Part shown: one piece after another, positions 1 through 12,000 of the stretch
Layout: each line of letters opens with the position of its first letter
Position numbering within the stretch: position 1 is the first letter of the stretch
Assembly (NCBI GenBank): GCA_963666275.2
Contig: CAXXOA010000002.1
Location: 1-64,000 of the forward strand
From: Oceanispirochaeta sp.
GTDB lineage: Bacteria; Spirochaetota; Spirochaetia; DSM-2461
Direction of reading: 5' to 3'
Length of the DNA: 64,000 bases
Position numbers: made by a program

Positions 1-3000
1 CTGAAGGCGCAAGGATTTAAAGAGGGAACAATCCGGACAAGGAAGGCCCATCTTACCCCCTTCTTTACCTTTTTGGATGAAACTGCCGCAAAAGACATCC
101 GGGATGTAAAGAGGAGTGATATTGTCTCCTTCCTTTCCTGGCTGCAGGAGCATCCCGGAGAGAGGGGAAGAGGCTACAAGGATAGTACCCGGATGAGTAT
201 TTTCACCTCGGTGAAGAAGTTCTACCTCTGTCTGTATGAGAACAACCTGGTTCTGTCCTCTCCGGCGGAGACAGTCCGGTTCGGGAAACGGCAGGAGCGG
301 CTCAAGGAGATCTTGAGCGAGGAAGAGACTTGCCAGTTTCTGGATTCCATCGATATTCACCAGCCCCTGGGACTCCGGGACAGAGCCCTTTTCGAGCTGA
401 TCTACTCTTCCGGCCTCCGGTCCTCCGAAGCGGCCCGTCTGGATGTAAAAGACTACGATCCGGACAGCCGGTTATTGTGGATCCACCAGAGCAAGTTCTC
501 CAAGGACCGGCGGGTGCCCGTTACCAAGGCGGCCGCCTGGTTTCTGGACAAGTATCTGGAAGGCGTGAAGGCATCCCACCGGCCTCTTATCCTTTCCGGA
601 GGCTACCGGTTTACTCACGGAGGGATCAACAAACGGTTCAAACTGCTATTGGAGCGTGCCGGTCTCTATCGAGAGGGCTTAAGCCCTCATTCCCTACGGC
701 ATGGCTGCGCTTCCCAGCTGTTGGCCCACGGAGCGGAGATCCGGTATGTTCAGGAGCTTTTGGGGCATGAATCGGTGGAAACCACGGTTGTGTACTCCCG
801 ACAGAGCGAAGAGAATATCAAGGCTTCCTACCGGCAGTTCCATCCCAGGGAGAATTTCCATTTCGCCGAAGTAACAGATTCTTACCTTGATTCACTGGAA
901 AACCTGGTTCGGGACAGCTTGAGGCAGAGAGAGAAGAATAGAAAAGCGCTTGCCCGTAAGATAGGTAAATGATAGTTTATTAACAGATTATGGTTGCTAC
1001 CCGGGGAATTCCAGTTTCAATGCCTCCTTGCAGATCTCCTTTTTACAACGATTTAGGGGAAGAGGGTGATTATTACTTTAATGCCAGGTGGTATGATGCT
1101 TCTACCGGTAGATTCATCTCAGAAGACCCCGCCCGGGACGGGCAAAATTGGTATGTTTACGTTTCAAACAATCCGCTAAAATACATTGACCCAACCGGTA
1201 TGATGAGTGATTCAGCCGCTTTTGCAGCAGCACAAACAAGACTGGATATTGAAAACTCTGATAGTCAATATGGTCATACTTATATTCGTGATGAATATGA
1301 TTACAAAGATTTCTCTAAAATGCTTGAACATATAGAAAAGAGCAGTGAATTAAAAATCGAGAACAATGAAAAAAGAATAGATGAATTAAAAGGTCAAATA
1401 CAATCAACTGAAATAGAAAAAAGATCTAAAGCTGCTGAGAATTTTGGAGATATTGCTAAGCTGGGAATTACATTTGATAATGGATCTTTTCAAGATATTG
1501 CTGAATTCGTTGCTGATTCTCAGTTGGAACCTCTAGATTATAATTTAGATTTGTCAGAGGAGAATAAAAAGATTTTTGGAAGAATTAAAGAAATTTTCAA
1601 TTTGAAAAAAGAAAACAATATGTATGAAAATGGAGCAGAAGGCGCTCGTGACTTATTAGATGATATCCATGAAAATCAAAATACAGAAAAAAATAATTCT
1701 GAAAAAGATGATTCTAATAATGAATCAGGAGAGGATAAGAGTGAGGATGATGTGAATGAATAATTTAAAAAACAGCAATTCGCAGATTAATAAAAATGAA
1801 ATTGGGAATAAATTTAAATTTGTATTAATTACATATTTTATTATTCAATTTACGCTGCTTATCTTCGAAGTAATTGGTATTTATCAGATTAATGAAGCTA
1901 TTCTTTCTATTACTGTTCTTTTCCTGATAGGAAAACTACTTGTAATAACGGGAGTAATAGTGCTTCTTTCTTTTCTTTTTTTTAATAGAAATGAAGCCTT
2001 TAAATTTGTGTGTAGCGTAATTCTAATTGCTAGAATTATATATGAAGTAATTGCATTTCTGATAAGTAACTTTTTATTGGGTTCAGGAAGTCTTTATTTA
2101 CTATTGTTTTGGTATTTGACCATTTTTATAACATTACTAGTATTAAGGAATCGTATTCATTTCAAAAAAATTACAGTCCATATTATTAAATCTATTTTAT
2201 TTGTTCTTAGTTTTATTGTTCTTTCAAATCTAGGTTTTCTATTAATAAGAAGTATTCTACAATTTGTTAAAAGCTCATAACACCATTGTTCTGCTGTGAC
2301 CGAAGGGAAACGGCAGCAACATACTTGTTATGACAGGATTTATTTTTCGCCGGAATGACTTTTCTCACGTGAAGAAGTTTTTCCGGCAGTAATCGCAGGC
2401 CGAACCTCCGCCGTCGTGGCTCCGGTTCTGATCAGAAAATCCGTTATCTGCAGCTGCCGTCCCTGGCAGCTGTCCGCATTCGCCATATAACGAATTCTCT
2501 GTTCACCTGCTTTTAGTGGTAGAGTTATAGCAAGTGAACAGAACGAGATCTTATCGGAAGCGTGCTTAGGATAAGATTTGTTCTGTTTAACGACCGCAGG
2601 GAGTGGGCTTGCGTTTACTGCCTATGGAGCTTTTTCTTCGGAATCAGCTCTGGCCGGGACCGGTGTTTCATTGTTTCATTCCCGTTATTACTCGATAAAT
2701 TCCGAAAAATTCCGTTTTGAAAATCTTTCCTCTACCGATTGAAGCGTAAAAGCTTTTGTGTTGGCGCCTCTCTGTCTTTGCAAAATTGTAGTTACAATAG
2801 TATAATTATATTATGACCTTTGAATGGGATGAAGAAAAAGACATAATCAACCGAAAGAAACACGGATTGTCATTCAAAGACGCCAAGTATGTTTTTGCCG
2901 ACCCGTTTGCCCTGGTTCGTGAGGATTACACGGATTCAGAGCCCCGTCAGCAAATTATGGGGCATATCGGCGGCATTCTGCTGGTGCTTGTGGTTTACAC

Positions 3001-9000: not shown

Positions 9001-12000
9001 AGCAGATCCTGGGACACCGGGCCATAGGGAACACCGAGATCTACACCAAGGTGGATGTGAAAGAGGTCAAGGAGCAGTTGGACCGCTGCCATCCCCGGCA
9101 GATGAGAGAGAAGAAGTGAAAAGGCTCTCAAGGCAGAAAGTCCTTTCCCTTTTCGCCGGATACCTGAAGGCGCAAGGATTTAAAGAGGGAACAATCCGGA
9201 CAAGGAAGGCCCATCTTACCCCCTTCTTTACCTTTTTGGATGAAACTGCCGCAAAAGACATCCGGGATGTAAAGAGGAGTGATATTGTCTCCTTCCTTTC
9301 CTGGCTGCAGGAGCATCCCGGAGAGAGGGGAAGAGGCTACAAGGATAGTACCCGGATGAGTATTTTCACCTCGGTGAAGAAGTTCTACCTCTGTCTGTAT
9401 GAGAACAACCTGGTTCTGTCCTCTCCGGCGGAGACAGTCCGGTTCGGGAAACGGCAGGAGCGGCTCAAGGAGATCTTGAGCGAGGAAGAGACTTGCCAGT
9501 TTCTGGATTCCATCGATATTCACCAGCCCCTGGGACTCCGGGACAGAGCCCTTTTCGAGCTGATCTACTCTTCCGGCCTCCGGTCCTCCGAAGCGGCCCG
9601 TCTGGATGTAAAAGACTACGATCCGGACAGCCGGTTATTGTGGATCCACCAGAGCAAGTTCTCCAAGGACCGGCGGGTGCCCGTTACCAAGGCGGCCGCC
9701 TGGTTTCTGGACAAGTATCTGGAAGGCGTGAAGGCATCCCACCGGCCTCTTATCCTTTCCGGAGGCTACCGGTTTACTCACGGAGGGATCAACAAACGGT
9801 TCAAACTGCTATTGGAGCGTGCCGGTCTCTATCGAGAGGGCTTAAGCCCTCATTCCCTACGGCATGGCTGCGCTTCCCAGCTGTTGGCCCACGGAGCGGA
9901 GATCCGGTATGTTCAGGAGCTTTTGGGGCATGAATCGGTGGAAACCACGGTTGTGTACTCCCGACAGAGCGAAGAGAATATCAAGGCTTCCTACCGGCAG
10001 TTCCATCCCAGGGAGAATTTCCATTTCGCCGAAGTAACAGATTCTTACCTTGATTCACTGGAAAACCTGGTTCGGGACAGCTTGAGGCAGAGAGAGAAGA
10101 ATAGAAAAGCGCTTGCCCGTAAGATAGGTAAATGATAGTTTATTAACAGATTATGGTTGCTACCCGGGGAATTCCAGTTTCAATGCCTCCTTGCAGATCT
10201 CCTTTTTACAACGATTTAGGGGAAGAGGGTGATTATTACTTTAATGCCAGGTGGTATGATGCTTCTACCGGTAGATTCATCTCAGAAGACCCCGCCCGGG
10301 ACGGGCAAAATTGGTATGTTTACGTTTCAAACAATCCGCTAAAATACATTGACCCAACCGGTATGATGAGTGATTCAGCCGCTTTTGCAGCAGCACAAAC
10401 AAGACTGGATATTGAAAACTCTGATAGTCAATATGGTCATACTTATATTCGTGATGAATATGATTACAAAGATTTCTCTAAAATGCTTGAACATATAGAA
10501 AAGAGCAGTGAATTAAAAATCGAGAACAATGAAAAAAGAATAGATGAATTAAAAGGTCAAATACAATCAACTGAAATAGAAAAAAGATCTAAAGCTGCTG
10601 AGAATTTTGGAGATATTGCTAAGCTGGGAATTACATTTGATAATGGATCTTTTCAAGATATTGCTGAATTCGTTGCTGATTCTCAGTTGGAACCTCTAGA
10701 TTATAATTTAGATTTGTCAGAGGAGAATAAAAAGATTTTTGGAAGAATTAAAGAAATTTTCAATTTGAATGAAAGTCAATAATCCAGATCATGTCATGAA
10801 TGATGCTTTTGAGCAGATTAGGCGCTCGTGATACTACTGCGACTGCTAGATGGGGAGGTATCCATGGTAGAAATCCAAAATACCAAAACCAACTTGGAAC
10901 GACATTCTAATAACAGATGATCATCATAGATTACTTGAATCGGGTGGTAATCTATTGAATGATCCATGATTCTCCAGATTTACCTTTAACGAATACGTCT
11001 ACAGTAAAATTCGCAGATTAATAAAAATGAACTTTGGGAATAAATTTAAATTTGTATTAATTACATATTTTATTATTCATATTTACGCTGCTTATCTTCG
11101 AAGTAATGGTATTTATCAGATTAATGAAGCTATTCTTTCTATTACTGTTCTTTTCCTGATAGGAAAACTACATTAGTCATTGATGAAGGTGAGTAGATAG
11201 TGCAATTCTTTATATTGGCGGTTTTGGATCATTCCCTATAAAAGAAGTAAAAGAGATAGATGGAAGCCTTTGAAATTTGTGTGTAGCGTAATTACTAGAG
11301 GTTGTTTAGATATTATATATGAAGTAATTGCATTTCTGATCAAGTAACACTTTTATGTGGGTTCAGGAAGATCTTGAAGGTTTACTCATTGTTTCCAACA
11401 TTTGACCATTGGATTTATAACATTAGCTAGTATTAAGGAATCAGTATTCATTTGATAAGTAATAATTACAGTACCATATTATTAAATGTCTATTTAAATT
11501 TGTTCTGGAGAAAGAATTGTTCTTTCAATGTCTAGGTTTGGAAATCTATGTGAATAAGAAGTATTCTACAATTTGTTCAAAATAATTTTCATAACACCAT
11601 TGTTCTGCTGTGACCGAAGGGAAACTGCAGCAACATGCTTGTTATGACAGAATTTTATTCTTTCGCCGGAGAAGTTTTTCCGGCTGAGAACCCGCAAGCC
11701 CGCTCCGGGAGTCGCTAAACAGAATACATCTTATAGTAAGCTCATACTTCGCTTCCGATAAGAAAGCATTCTGTTCACTTGCTGATGCTGGTTCGGTTGG
11801 TAGTTAAAAAGCACGCAGAGCAGTAACTTTGCGTGCTTTTTTCAGAGCTTGATTGCCTAACATATTAATAGTATTATTATAATTGTTAGGCAATTCCTAC
11901 ATGCCCGGCAACACGAGGAACATTATGAGCGTGATTAAAGACGTGATCAAAGAAGAATACAACCGCCTCAACTCTCTGGTGGAGCTTTATGACCAGAAGA

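Follow-up and report, generated by a model that had tools for sequence, protein, structure and literature searches.

A 9,163-bp plasmid-like unit of Oceanispirochaeta sp. with a probable attachment site at the Rhs core-end codons

The DNA studied here is the window of positions 1-64,000 of contig CAXXOA010000002.1 (C2) in the three-contig assembly GCA_963666275.2 of Oceanispirochaeta sp. (genome code G000). The contig begins within a unit of 9,163 bp, the features of which are collected in Table 1 together with those of the older remains on its right. The gene content that a first-pass annotation had assigned to the unit is borne out by Pfam and NCBIfam profile matches and by the ORF map.

Table 1. 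Features of the unit and of the older remains beside it (positions in the window)
Feature	Position	Strand	Evidence or remark
rec2, 3' part, cut by contig start	1..972	+	identical to 9164-10135; Phage_integrase E 7e-37
Tip ORF, element-borne, 257 aa	990..1763	+	TIGR03696
Proposed crossover core TATTACTTTAATGC, first core-end codons	1071..1084	+	candidate, from relatives
Direct repeat, left copy (junction element/element)	1071..1606	+	blastn
Immunity-like gene, 174 aa	1756..2280	+	position after tip; overlaps tip stop
Conserved 3' border of tip/immunity cassette	2271..2530	+	DNA fold z -3.2
BrnT toxin	2813..3100	+	PF04365, 82.7 bits, E 2e-23
BrnA antitoxin	3078..3374	+	PF14384, 58.2 bits, E 1e-15
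HTH_3 (Xre/cI-type) regulator	3413..3805	-	profile match
Two small conserved ORFs	4072..4356 and 4278..4613	+	ORF map, relatives
ParA-type partition ATPase	4606..5361	+	profile matches
DnaG-type primase-helicase fusion	5349..8030	+	893 codons from GTG
rec1, Xer-like tyrosine recombinase	8166..9119	+	Phage_integrase
rec2, Xer-like tyrosine recombinase	9116..10135	+	Phage_integrase
Displaced tip ORF, 209 aa	10153..10782	+	blastn, ORF map
Direct repeat, right copy (junction element/old cassette)	10234..10769	+	blastn
Older cassette remains	10770..11670	+	blastn
IS21-family insertion in old array	11883..14292	+	istA 12236-13534, istB 13531-14292 (profile search)
Relics of further older element	15525..16430	+	border copy 15525-15635, BrnT remnant 15668-15951

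The element-borne tip ORF opens with a 27-codon leader (990-1070), continues with the Rhs core end, from YYFNARWYD to IDPTGM (1071-1202), and closes with a C-terminal domain. Residues 24-71 match TIGR03696 (Rhs_assc_core) with 55.3 bits against a cut-off of 32.5, the motif IDPTGMM is present, and the core end stands directly 5' of a variable C-terminal domain, as in an orphan tip. Searches of this domain with Pfam and other profiles gave no known family; among 14 tip ORFs of relatives that were scanned, 13 gave no Pfam family at E <= 0.001 and the remaining one only a sub-threshold match to SseC. The 174-aa protein encoded behind the tip is hydrophobic over residues 19 to 171 and matched no immunity family in profile searches; its place behind the tip suggests that it would be the tip's immunity protein, with the tip presumably toxic and the membrane protein presumably protective. 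The conserved border of this cassette holds two hairpins (about 2275-2341 and 2349-2387). Copies of the border, 88-95% identical, stand behind the cassettes of the relatives G003 and G004, and diverged copies occur at 11516-11670 and 15525-15635 and also on contig C1.

In the backbone that follows, the genes of BrnT and BrnA are adjacent and overlap, which is the arrangement of a type II toxin-antitoxin pair. The HTH_3 gene diverges from the replication operon, and its position is constant in all relatives, the proteobacterial ones included; for the two small ORFs the profile searches gave no family match. The primase has a zinc ribbon and a Toprim domain in residues 27-372 by profile matches, followed at residues about 400-893 by an MCM-like OB/AAA+/winged-helix part with a predicted fold of pLDDT 77.5. 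A structure search with the model of the C-terminus found MCM chains (E 1.6e-12, TM 0.41-0.50), so that this domain is predicted to fold like an MCM-like helicase domain. Besides this primase and ParA, no origin, ParB or centromere was identified on the element. Distant homologues are carried by records of 8.8 kb and 11.3 kb that are entered as circular plasmids; the smaller one (8,758 bp) may be an assembly product, because it is equal to a single unit of a tandem array in a chromosome.

Both recombinases match Phage_integrase (E 1.6e-30 and 4.6e-37) and keep the catalytic R, HxxR, H and Y. They score as XerC/XerD-like, below the equivalog cut-offs, and the integron integrase model TIGR02249, with its cut-off of 265 bits, gives them 88.9 and 103 bits. 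No excisionase was recognised on the element. In C2 the stop of rec2 lies 17 nt 5' of the next tip ORF.

The repeats and junctions claimed earlier for the unit were recovered on C2 and C3 by the same blastn matches (window positions 1-13000 against the three-contig genome). C2:1-1606 is identical to C2:9164-10769 (100% over 1606 nt), C2:1071-7211 is identical to C3:6141-1 reversed (100% over 6141 nt), and C2:10234-10769 corresponds to C3:6141-5606. The unit is bracketed by a direct repeat of 536 bp, and three junctions are present, namely flank/1071 in C3 and 1070/1071 and 1606/10770 in C2, with the 1070/1071 junction being fitted equally well by a circle and by a tandem pair.

On the right of the unit an older pair, a chimeric tip with a broken immunity remnant, has been displaced downstream (10153-11670). 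The displaced tip ORF is made of the element leader, the core end and the first 134 residues of the tip, and then ends differently, with NESQ and a stop. Behind it, 10770-11007 is unalignable and 11008-11670 is a remnant of the immunity gene (81-83% identical; 83% to C2:1777-2354 in the blastn search of the genome). The first-pass annotation had placed an old tip end and an immunity remnant here, which holds with the 83% match, with the correction that the remnant is interrupted by many stops. Farther to the right, the relics of the further older element also include an HTH/MqsA-like ORF (15911-16267) and a repeat (16339-16419).

It is also noted that C2 and C3 both break off inside the unit and that like contig breaks are present in G003 and G004, as would be expected if the layout were an assembly artefact or a plain chromosomal tandem duplication without mobility. 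This explanation is disfavoured and we regard it as very improbable, in that the architecture recurs in several genomes on long contigs that resolve either flank (G017:C4, G019:C1 and G003:C4) and the element occurs at different loci of one genome (G003).

Eight loci were fetched from four relatives (G003, G004, G017 and G019; primase identity 49-91%), and all eight have the order tip, cargo, HTH (minus strand), o8, o9, ParA, primase, rec1, rec2, tip. Two elements stand in tandem in five of them (G017:C4, G003:C3, G004:C6, G004:C13 and G019:C1), each pair within one unbroken contig; between the 9.8-kb copies of G017:C4 there are only 6 differences, all within the right-hand att repeat. At three loci a full-length Rhs protein with RHS_repeat matches ends in the first tip (3384 aa in G017:C4, 1681 aa with an M23 peptidase tip in G017:C1, and 2176 aa in G019:C1). 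Of the 18 loci whose sequence continues for 380 nt or more past rec2, 17 have the core-end motif 107-1444 nt 3' of the rec2 stop; at the rec1-rec2 locus G043:C470 no core end occurs within 1.5 kb. Homologues of the HTH/primase/XerC backbone adjoin Rhs/CdiA genes or Rhs core-end fragments in all six PLSDB records examined, and the proteobacterial ones beside Rhs or CdiA include one at an E. coli rhs locus.

The junctions of the relatives allow the crossover to be mapped, on the presupposition that no mutation or conversion came later. In G017:C4, attL joins the rhs core to the element tip, the middle junction is of the element/element type by its SNP pattern, and at attR the SNPs change from element type to old-tip type inside 27 nt coding FTGKEWDEE. 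In G003, the copies of one element on C3 and C4 are 99.956% identical over 9189 nt, tip included, and the DNA on their left is unrelated (37/100 identical). At three junctions whose element ends are the same (150/150), identity persists for 14-29 nt and then drops to about 70%. The corresponding runs in G004 measure 14 and 7 nt, and all five comparisons switch at the same place. By this mapping the crossover probably lies within some 12-14 nt, in the opening codons of the Rhs core end, i.e., at the left edge of the repeat, where the consensus of the attachment site is TAT TAC TWY AAT GC, coding YY(Y/F)NA. A crossover within so short a stretch favours site-specific recombination. The left junction of the Oceanispirochaeta genome, between the C3 flank and the tip, falls exactly at the 14-nt core; the native intergenic sequence GGTTGGTTTGTAT at this junction is common to G003 and G010, and neither G010 nor G002 carries the element at this locus. 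An empty rhs site to compare with was not found. The features of an integrative element that are present are thus the catalytic residues, the bracketing repeats, one element at different sites and a locus that is empty in relatives.

The 536-bp repeat as a whole had been taken as the attachment site. While the repeat does bracket the unit, the relatives share far less at their element ends (about 100 bp, 67 bp or a run of 7-29 nt), with the crossover at the left edge of the repeat; the 536-bp repeat of the Oceanispirochaeta genome is therefore exceptional. Such a repeat brings up another explanation, that the unit enters and leaves by RecA-dependent homologous recombination of its tip with a tip or core end on the chromosome, with the Xer-like pair only resolving multimers of the episome. 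Plasmid-borne Xer-like recombinases often merely resolve multimers, and both recombinases here are of the XerC/XerD-like kind. Moreover, the repeat is 100% identical and stops where the homology to the old cassette drops, for which homologous recombination or gene conversion is a simpler explanation than a 14-nt core, and homologous recombination is what displacement is ascribed to in the available text of Jackson 2009 (PMC2935791) and Ruhe 2016 (PMC4927057). By contrast, at the G003 and G004 junctions the identity spans just 7-29 nt in a core end otherwise about 70% identical, which is too little for efficient RecA exchange, and five comparisons switching at one place, the joining of the tip to native intergenic DNA without homology in the Oceanispirochaeta genome, and the position of rec2 directly beside the core end in 17/18 loci also speak against it. 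We therefore consider the RecA-dependent route unlikely.

Another explanation is that the mobile unit is only the tip and immunity gene between the core end and the hairpin region, with the backbone serving as a capture platform in a system like integrons or rAID. All cassettes, the displaced ones too, end in the same conserved hairpin region, and the two G003:C3 copies, with backbones 99.7% identical, carry different cassettes, which a single crossover at the core end leaves unexplained. In addition, according to the available text of PMC12247911, the tyrosine recombinase of rAID systems is accompanied by arrays of orphan immunity genes and by conserved motifs between genes. If this explanation were true, however, it would be difficult to see why tip and backbone occur together at the two G003 loci that share 9189 nt, why G017:C4 repeats whole 9.8-kb units, why none of the 8 mapped loci has a multi-cassette array beside the rec genes, and why the integron-integrase models score so far below the cut-off. 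Capture of cassettes by a fixed backbone thus appears improbable, more so than the RecA-dependent route.

We propose that the 9,163-bp unit is probably a small integrative plasmid-like element with its attachment site at the Rhs core-end codons. The circle would carry, in order, the core end with the toxin tip, the immunity gene, BrnTA, HTH, the two small ORFs, ParA, the primase with the MCM-like helicase part, rec1, rec2 and the short leader, with the attachment site directly behind rec2, so that the element would bear its own copy of the site before its own tip. Rec1 and Rec2 would carry out the crossover between this site and the same codons in an rhs gene of the chromosome. After the integration, the rhs core would read into the element tip, followed by the element immunity gene, while the old tip and immunity gene would end up behind rec2, fused to the 27-codon leader of the element. 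With repeated integration, tandem arrays would build up, and older cassettes would be left behind to decay. Excision presumably occurs, and an episomal replicating phase may be driven by the primase-helicase and ParA. The first-pass annotation had already suggested an element that uses the end of rhs as attachment site and swaps the tip, and this idea is supported in the relatives by the adjacency of rec2 and the core end, the Rhs fusions and the G017:C4 junctions.

In the Oceanispirochaeta genome itself, profile searches with TIGR03696, TIGR01643 and PF05593 found no full-length rhs gene, in agreement with a caveat raised earlier. TIGR03696 matches at 5 places, with a largest open frame of 450 aa, TIGR01643 gives no match in the genome, and PF05593 gives a single weak match elsewhere in it. 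The C3 flank left of 1071 was considered as a possible rhs gene and rejected, as it is the end of an ordinary gene with its terminator. With no full-length rhs present and the array lying behind this terminator, the tips are therefore unarmed in this genome, where the array could act only as a reserve of tips and immunity genes and as a selfish element that BrnTA stabilises.

The proposed element can be compared with several known systems. Islands in tRNA genes, of the P4 type, integrate at a gene's 3' end, for which they bring a replacement. The element resembles them in the recombinase genes beside the attachment site, the copy of the target's end, the bracketing direct repeats and the possible tandem arrays; it differs in that the replacement end is a different toxin domain rather than a faithful copy, so that integration would change the function of the target protein, and in having two recombinases instead of a single integrase. 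The CTX phage and the gonococcal genetic island, at dif, are examples of IMEX, and the host XerCD is used at dif. IMEX are elements integrated by Xer recombination (PMC10210955). The Xer-type recombinases, short core sites, tandem arrays and extrachromosomal circles (a putative circle for the 9,163-bp element) are common to both, whereas our element encodes its own Xer-like pair and has a coding motif of a toxin gene as target. Like integrons, the element has a tyrosine recombinase and promoterless cassettes whose 3' border is structured; assignment to integrons was rejected, given the TIGR02249 scores, the absence of an attI/attC pair or cassette array by the recombinase and the movement of whole elements.

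The rAID of Bacteroidales, as far as the available text of PMC12247911 describes them, likewise have a tyrosine recombinase beside orphan immunity genes and conserved intergenic motifs, are mobile between strains and give protection without the cognate delivered toxin, as would hold in an rhs-less genome. By contrast, in rAID one recombinase heads a long array of short genes without replication or partition genes, while the element, compared by layout, has one cassette per 9 kb, its recombinases at the junction to the next tip, at the far end of a 7-kb backbone, and belongs to another phylum. Membership in rAID was rejected: the conserved cassette border is present, and an array of at least 2 co-oriented short immunity genes behind the recombinase is absent.

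Finally, the outcome is the same as in the C-terminal displacement of Rhs and CdiA, where a new tip and immunity gene come to stand on the core and the old tips, now orphans that retain part of the core end, lie downstream (PMC2935791, PMC4927057 and PMC5727410). Integrase genes among orphan arrays were noted by Ruhe 2016 (PMC4927057) and Steele 2017 (PMC5727410), and the available text of these three papers gives no vehicle for the displacement. In contrast to those descriptions, a defined 9-kb backbone with HTH, ParA, the primase-MCM-like helicase and two recombinases travels with the tip here, and the crossover maps to a stretch of about 12-14 nt. The element thus appears to be the vehicle, long sought, by which new toxin tips reach rhs (and CdiA) genes.

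A blastn comparison of window positions 1-13000 with the three contigs of the genome (G000) shows that C2:1-1606 recurs as C2:9164-10769, that C3:6141-1, reversed, equals C2:1071-7211 and that C2:1777-2354 is 83% identical to C2:11008-11670. Every alignment listed in the first-pass annotation is reproduced, and the unit and its bracketing repeat come out at the same sizes, 9,163 bp and 536 bp. The gene content is collected in the table, where tip denotes an Rhs core end with a variable C-terminal toxin-like domain and rec1 and rec2 are the two recombinases; between the stop of rec2 and the next tip ORF lie 17 nt.

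Genes and repeats of the unit, of the decayed part of the island and of related loci in G000, from ORF and family scans and alignments (unit genes in their order; positions without a contig name are on C2)
Feature	Position	Strand	Remarks
Tip ORF	990-1763		TIGR03696 (RHS-associated core end) matched at residues 24-71 with 55.3 bits
Hydrophobic ORF, 174 aa			next after the tip ORF
BrnT/BrnA			next after the 174-aa ORF
HTH regulator		divergent	next after BrnT/BrnA
Two small ORFs (o8, o9)			between the HTH regulator and ParA
ParA			before the primase
DnaG-type primase			893 codons; after ParA
rec1 and rec2			overlapping Xer-like tyrosine recombinases, catalytic residues present in both
Cassette border	2271-2530		two-hairpin region
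IS21-family element	11883-14292		istA 12236-13534, istB 13531-14292; inserted in the relic of an older cassette array
DUF3800 gene	14596-15462	-	in the decayed part of the island, next to a BrnT remnant
HTH/MqsA-like ORF	15911-16267	+	in the decayed part of the island, next to a BrnT remnant
Partly palindromic element, ~85 nt	2529-2613, 11693-11783, 16339-16419		
PLP-dependent enzyme gene	17059-18264	-	adjoins the island
Radical-SAM gene	18479-19957		
First further orphan tip (locus L030)	C1:1483305-1486046		same core end; copy of the cassette-border hairpin behind it, at C1:1485982
Second further orphan tip (locus L031)	C1:1793924-1794151		same core end; 450-aa frame keeping ~130 aa of rhs core, KYTGKDLDEDTGL before YYF
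Second adjacent tyrosine-recombinase pair	C1:2431197-2434630		24-33% identical to rec1/rec2

Searches of G000 with the core end, the YD-repeat and RHS_repeat gave five core-end matches in frames no longer than 450 aa, one weak RHS_repeat match elsewhere in the genome and none with the YD-repeat; there is no full-length rhs gene. TssC (PF05943) was not found in the genome either, and a type VI secretion context was dropped for this reason. Neither of the two further orphan tips on C1 has a recombinase gene like those of the element nearby. The second recombinase pair on C1, which has a 55-nt stretch 87% identical to window positions 377-431, may belong to a different element with a paired-recombinase module.

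It was in the relatives that the essentials of the first-pass annotation, which had read the unit as an integrating element that installs a tip and immunity gene at the conserved end of rhs genes, found their support; the element belongs to a conserved family that joins new tips, with immunity genes, to rhs genes. A primase search of 61 genomes gave family-type copies in G003, G004, G015, G017, G019, G026, G029 and G050, frequently 9-10 kb apart, the remaining matches being chromosomal DnaG. The order tip, cargo, HTH, o8, o9, ParA, primase, rec1, rec2, tip is kept in all eight loci fetched from G003, G004, G017 and G019, with the primases 49-91% identical, and five of the eight hold tandem element pairs. 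In three of these loci the frame of the first tip is that of a full-length Rhs protein with RHS_repeat matches (3384 aa in G017:C4; 1681 aa in G017:C1, with an M23 peptidase domain at the end; 2176 aa in G019:C1). Based on a rec2 search, rec1-rec2 pairs are present in 12 of the 401 genomes of the class, G000 counted, and among the 18 loci with at least 380 nt of downstream sequence the core-end motif follows the rec2 stop by 107-1444 nt in 17 and is absent in one. This count leaves out three loci with too little downstream sequence to judge, the cut copy L074, and eight genomes of another family (G037, G074, G100, G124, G145, G165, G199 and G225), where a single recombinase stands in a locus with no primase. 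We also considered whether the element's own cargo is the tip behind rec2. This was rejected, since in G003 it is the upstream tip that moves together with the backbone, and the downstream tips are not alike. It is noted that, like the assembly of G000, the long-read assemblies of two other species break inside the arrays, at the ends of C2 and C3 in G003 and at the end of C6 and the start of C13 in G004 (loci L017, L019, L024, L026); the assemblies probably understate the length or the variability of the arrays.

The junctions in the relatives indicate where the exchange takes place. In G017:C4, where the tandem copies differ at six positions, all within the right att repeat, the left junction joins the rhs core to the element's tip, the middle one joins element to element, and the right one has the element on its left side and then the SNPs of the old tip within 27 nt coding for FTGKEWDEE, with the switch located where a repeat of ~100 nt has its left edge. 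In G003 one element is present at two loci, its copies being 99.956% identical over 9189 nt, tip included, with unrelated left flanks (37/100 identical) and nearly the same right sides (149/150). Three junctions of G003 have identical element ends (150/150), beyond which the identity runs on for 14, 14 and 29 nt only and then drops to ~70%; the corresponding runs in G004 are 14 and 7 nt. One left junction among those compared keeps a chromosomal TAC in the first codon. From these short runs and this retained codon the exchange is confined to ~12-14 nt, TAY TAC TWY AAT GC, with the predicted exchange core at the element junction around 1071 being TATTACTWYAATGC.

On the sequences compared, site-specific recombination is favoured over other routes, because the window is short and fixed, the core end is otherwise ~70% identical and the recombinase genes are adjacent, and also because the G000 tip joins non-homologous native DNA. 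The 536-bp identical repeat of G000 is the exception among the junctions compared. Since the old cassette (tip plus immunity gene) was akin to the incoming one, the immunity remnant being 83% identical, this identity could have arisen by gene conversion or by an extra homologous exchange. The first-pass annotation is corrected here in one respect: the attachment site would be a short core at the repeat's left edge rather than all 536 bp.

A single crossover at site-specific sites does not cover everything. The conserved two-hairpin region ends every tip/immunity pair, the displaced pairs included, and two copies in G003:C3 have backbones 99.7% identical and different cassettes, so that some exchange occurs at this second border too; exchange at the cassette border would be the main point beyond the simple single-crossover model. 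As to what the cassettes encode, 13 of the 14 tip ORFs of the relatives have no Pfam family at E <= 0.001, the other showing a sub-threshold SseC match only, and five of the 13 ORFs downstream of the tips have matches (two NADase_transloc, SH3_3, WG_beta_rep and a weak NMN_transporter). The tip of G000 is presumably toxic.

We then consider the site in G000 itself. The C3 sequence to the left of 1071 is not rhs; an ordinary gene ends there with its terminator, and after it come GGTTGGTTTG and then TATTAC.... This ordinary gene adjoins the radical-SAM gene in G010 and directly adjoins the next gene along in G002, and thus the whole array of G000 is an insertion at this locus. In the left-junction comparison the bases GGTTTGTAT are common to G003 and G010 and are therefore native, which implies that the G000 tip begins exactly at the first tyrosine codon. 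These native bases resemble the rhs sequence GGnCTGTAT ahead of the core, a likeness that would fit either the use of a secondary site or a deletion made by the recombinase. As a second correction to the first-pass annotation, the array of G000 occupies a non-rhs site, and its tips are unarmed.

To the right of the 536-bp right repeat there is a diverged stretch and then an immunity remnant with many stops, followed by the IS21 element and relics, among them copies of the cassette border and a BrnT remnant. An IS21 is likewise found in a relative of the element from Caballeronia, where it interrupts the primase gene. The ~85-nt element, which is also present in G004 and recurs inverted behind old cassettes, is possibly a terminator, or else a miniature mobile repeat. 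The PLP-dependent enzyme gene lies 48-117 kb from the radical-SAM gene in the relatives (G010, G003), so a rearrangement accompanies the island in G000. Native sequence resuming upstream of the radical-SAM gene was not found at the right end of the island, the intergenic DNA being too diverged to align.

At least 776 homologues match residues 400-893 of the primase. Comparison of the C-terminus with solved structures by sequence gave zero matches, whereas a fold search with the AlphaFold model of this domain (pLDDT 77.5) matched MCM helicases (E 1.6e-12, TM 0.41-0.50). With a putative primase-helicase, ParA and BrnTA the unit reads as a small replicon, and we infer that the element excises and replicates; no replication origin was found in the unit. 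A search for free copies with the primase gave four weak or short loci in the metagenome scan and one in the viral scan, with no circular contigs. Many metagenomic homologues of the helicase domain lie on contigs of ~9-10 kb (e.g. 9140, 9460, 9496, 9549, 9673, 9758 and 9807 bp), the size of one element, which hints at separate circles or repeat-collapsed contigs.

Full-length homologues of 31-34% identity are also present on proteobacterial plasmids and megaplasmids. Six of the 36 records matching the helicase domain, the top of the list and the two smallest, were inspected, and in all six a polymorphic toxin gene, or fragments of the Rhs core end, is found next to the HTH-primase-XerC backbone. 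The neighbours are a 2290-aa Rhs-type protein in Janthinobacterium, Rhs in Ralstonia, and in Caballeronia Rhs, where the core end recurs behind the integrase and there is an Ntox21 tip; in Paraburkholderia two tandem elements accompany CdiA, with the pre-toxin region repeated behind each XerC and then ART and HNH tips with immunity genes. An 11.3-kb Lonsdalea record, with two core-end plus nuclease tips and immunity genes, and an 8.8-kb Shigella record are filed as circular plasmids. Of 5426 complete E. coli genomes, 44 have the whole 8.8-kb sequence in their chromosome at >=98% identity; in the one genome inspected, two tandem copies stand behind a vgrG-linked full-length rhs gene. As the plasmid record equals one unit of the E. 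coli array, it may represent either a genuine circle or a product of the assembly. At an E. coli rhs locus beside pptA/yddH/nhoA (L090, NZ_CP200002.1 2785922-2812679), two tandem HTH-SymE-primase-XerC elements lie behind vgrG, full-length rhs and Imm8, and between them are Rhs core fragments, an HYD1 ART fragment and ISEc1 copies. The proteobacterial backbones next to Rhs or CdiA genes, one variant of which accounts for the 44 E. coli genomes, suggest that the mechanism is general.

Taken jointly, we propose, as a reading for and against which we see even chances, a cross-phylum family of small episomes (HTH, primase-MCM-like helicase and one or more Xer-type recombinases) that would integrate site-specifically at the conserved pre-toxin boundary of polymorphic toxin genes, being the general vehicle that delivers tips and immunity genes and builds rhs/cdi orphan arrays, with the recombinase of each subfamily retargeted to the boundary motif of its host. 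In Spirochaetia, Burkholderiales and Enterobacterales the target would be the Rhs core end, and in Paraburkholderia it would be the pre-toxin region of CdiA.

No description of the element was found in a literature search, with subscription journals and supplements outside its reach. Jackson 2009 (PMC2935791) gives a displacement model with an episomal circle that carries the tip and is required to be stable, and states that no integrase was known to accompany Rhs. Later work only remarks on integrase genes among orphan arrays: integrase-like genes linked to Rhs (Steele 2017, PMC5727410), integrases among cdi orphans, with integration and displacement proposed (Ruhe 2016, PMC4927057), and XerC/D adjoining polyimmunity loci (Zhang 2012). 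A 2020 paper has SymE genes adjoining Rhs orphans, and rAID (PMC12247911) is the nearest defence analogue.

The way in which rhs and cdi genes gain new toxin tips has been a standing question from the 2009 displacement model onwards. An element of defined content, which has recombinases of its own beside a mapped crossover of 12-14 nt as well as replication genes, makes this question experimentally approachable. If our model is true, it would account for the piece of core end kept by orphan tips, for the age order of orphan arrays, and for the spread of immunity genes to genomes without a delivery gene, of which G000 is one.
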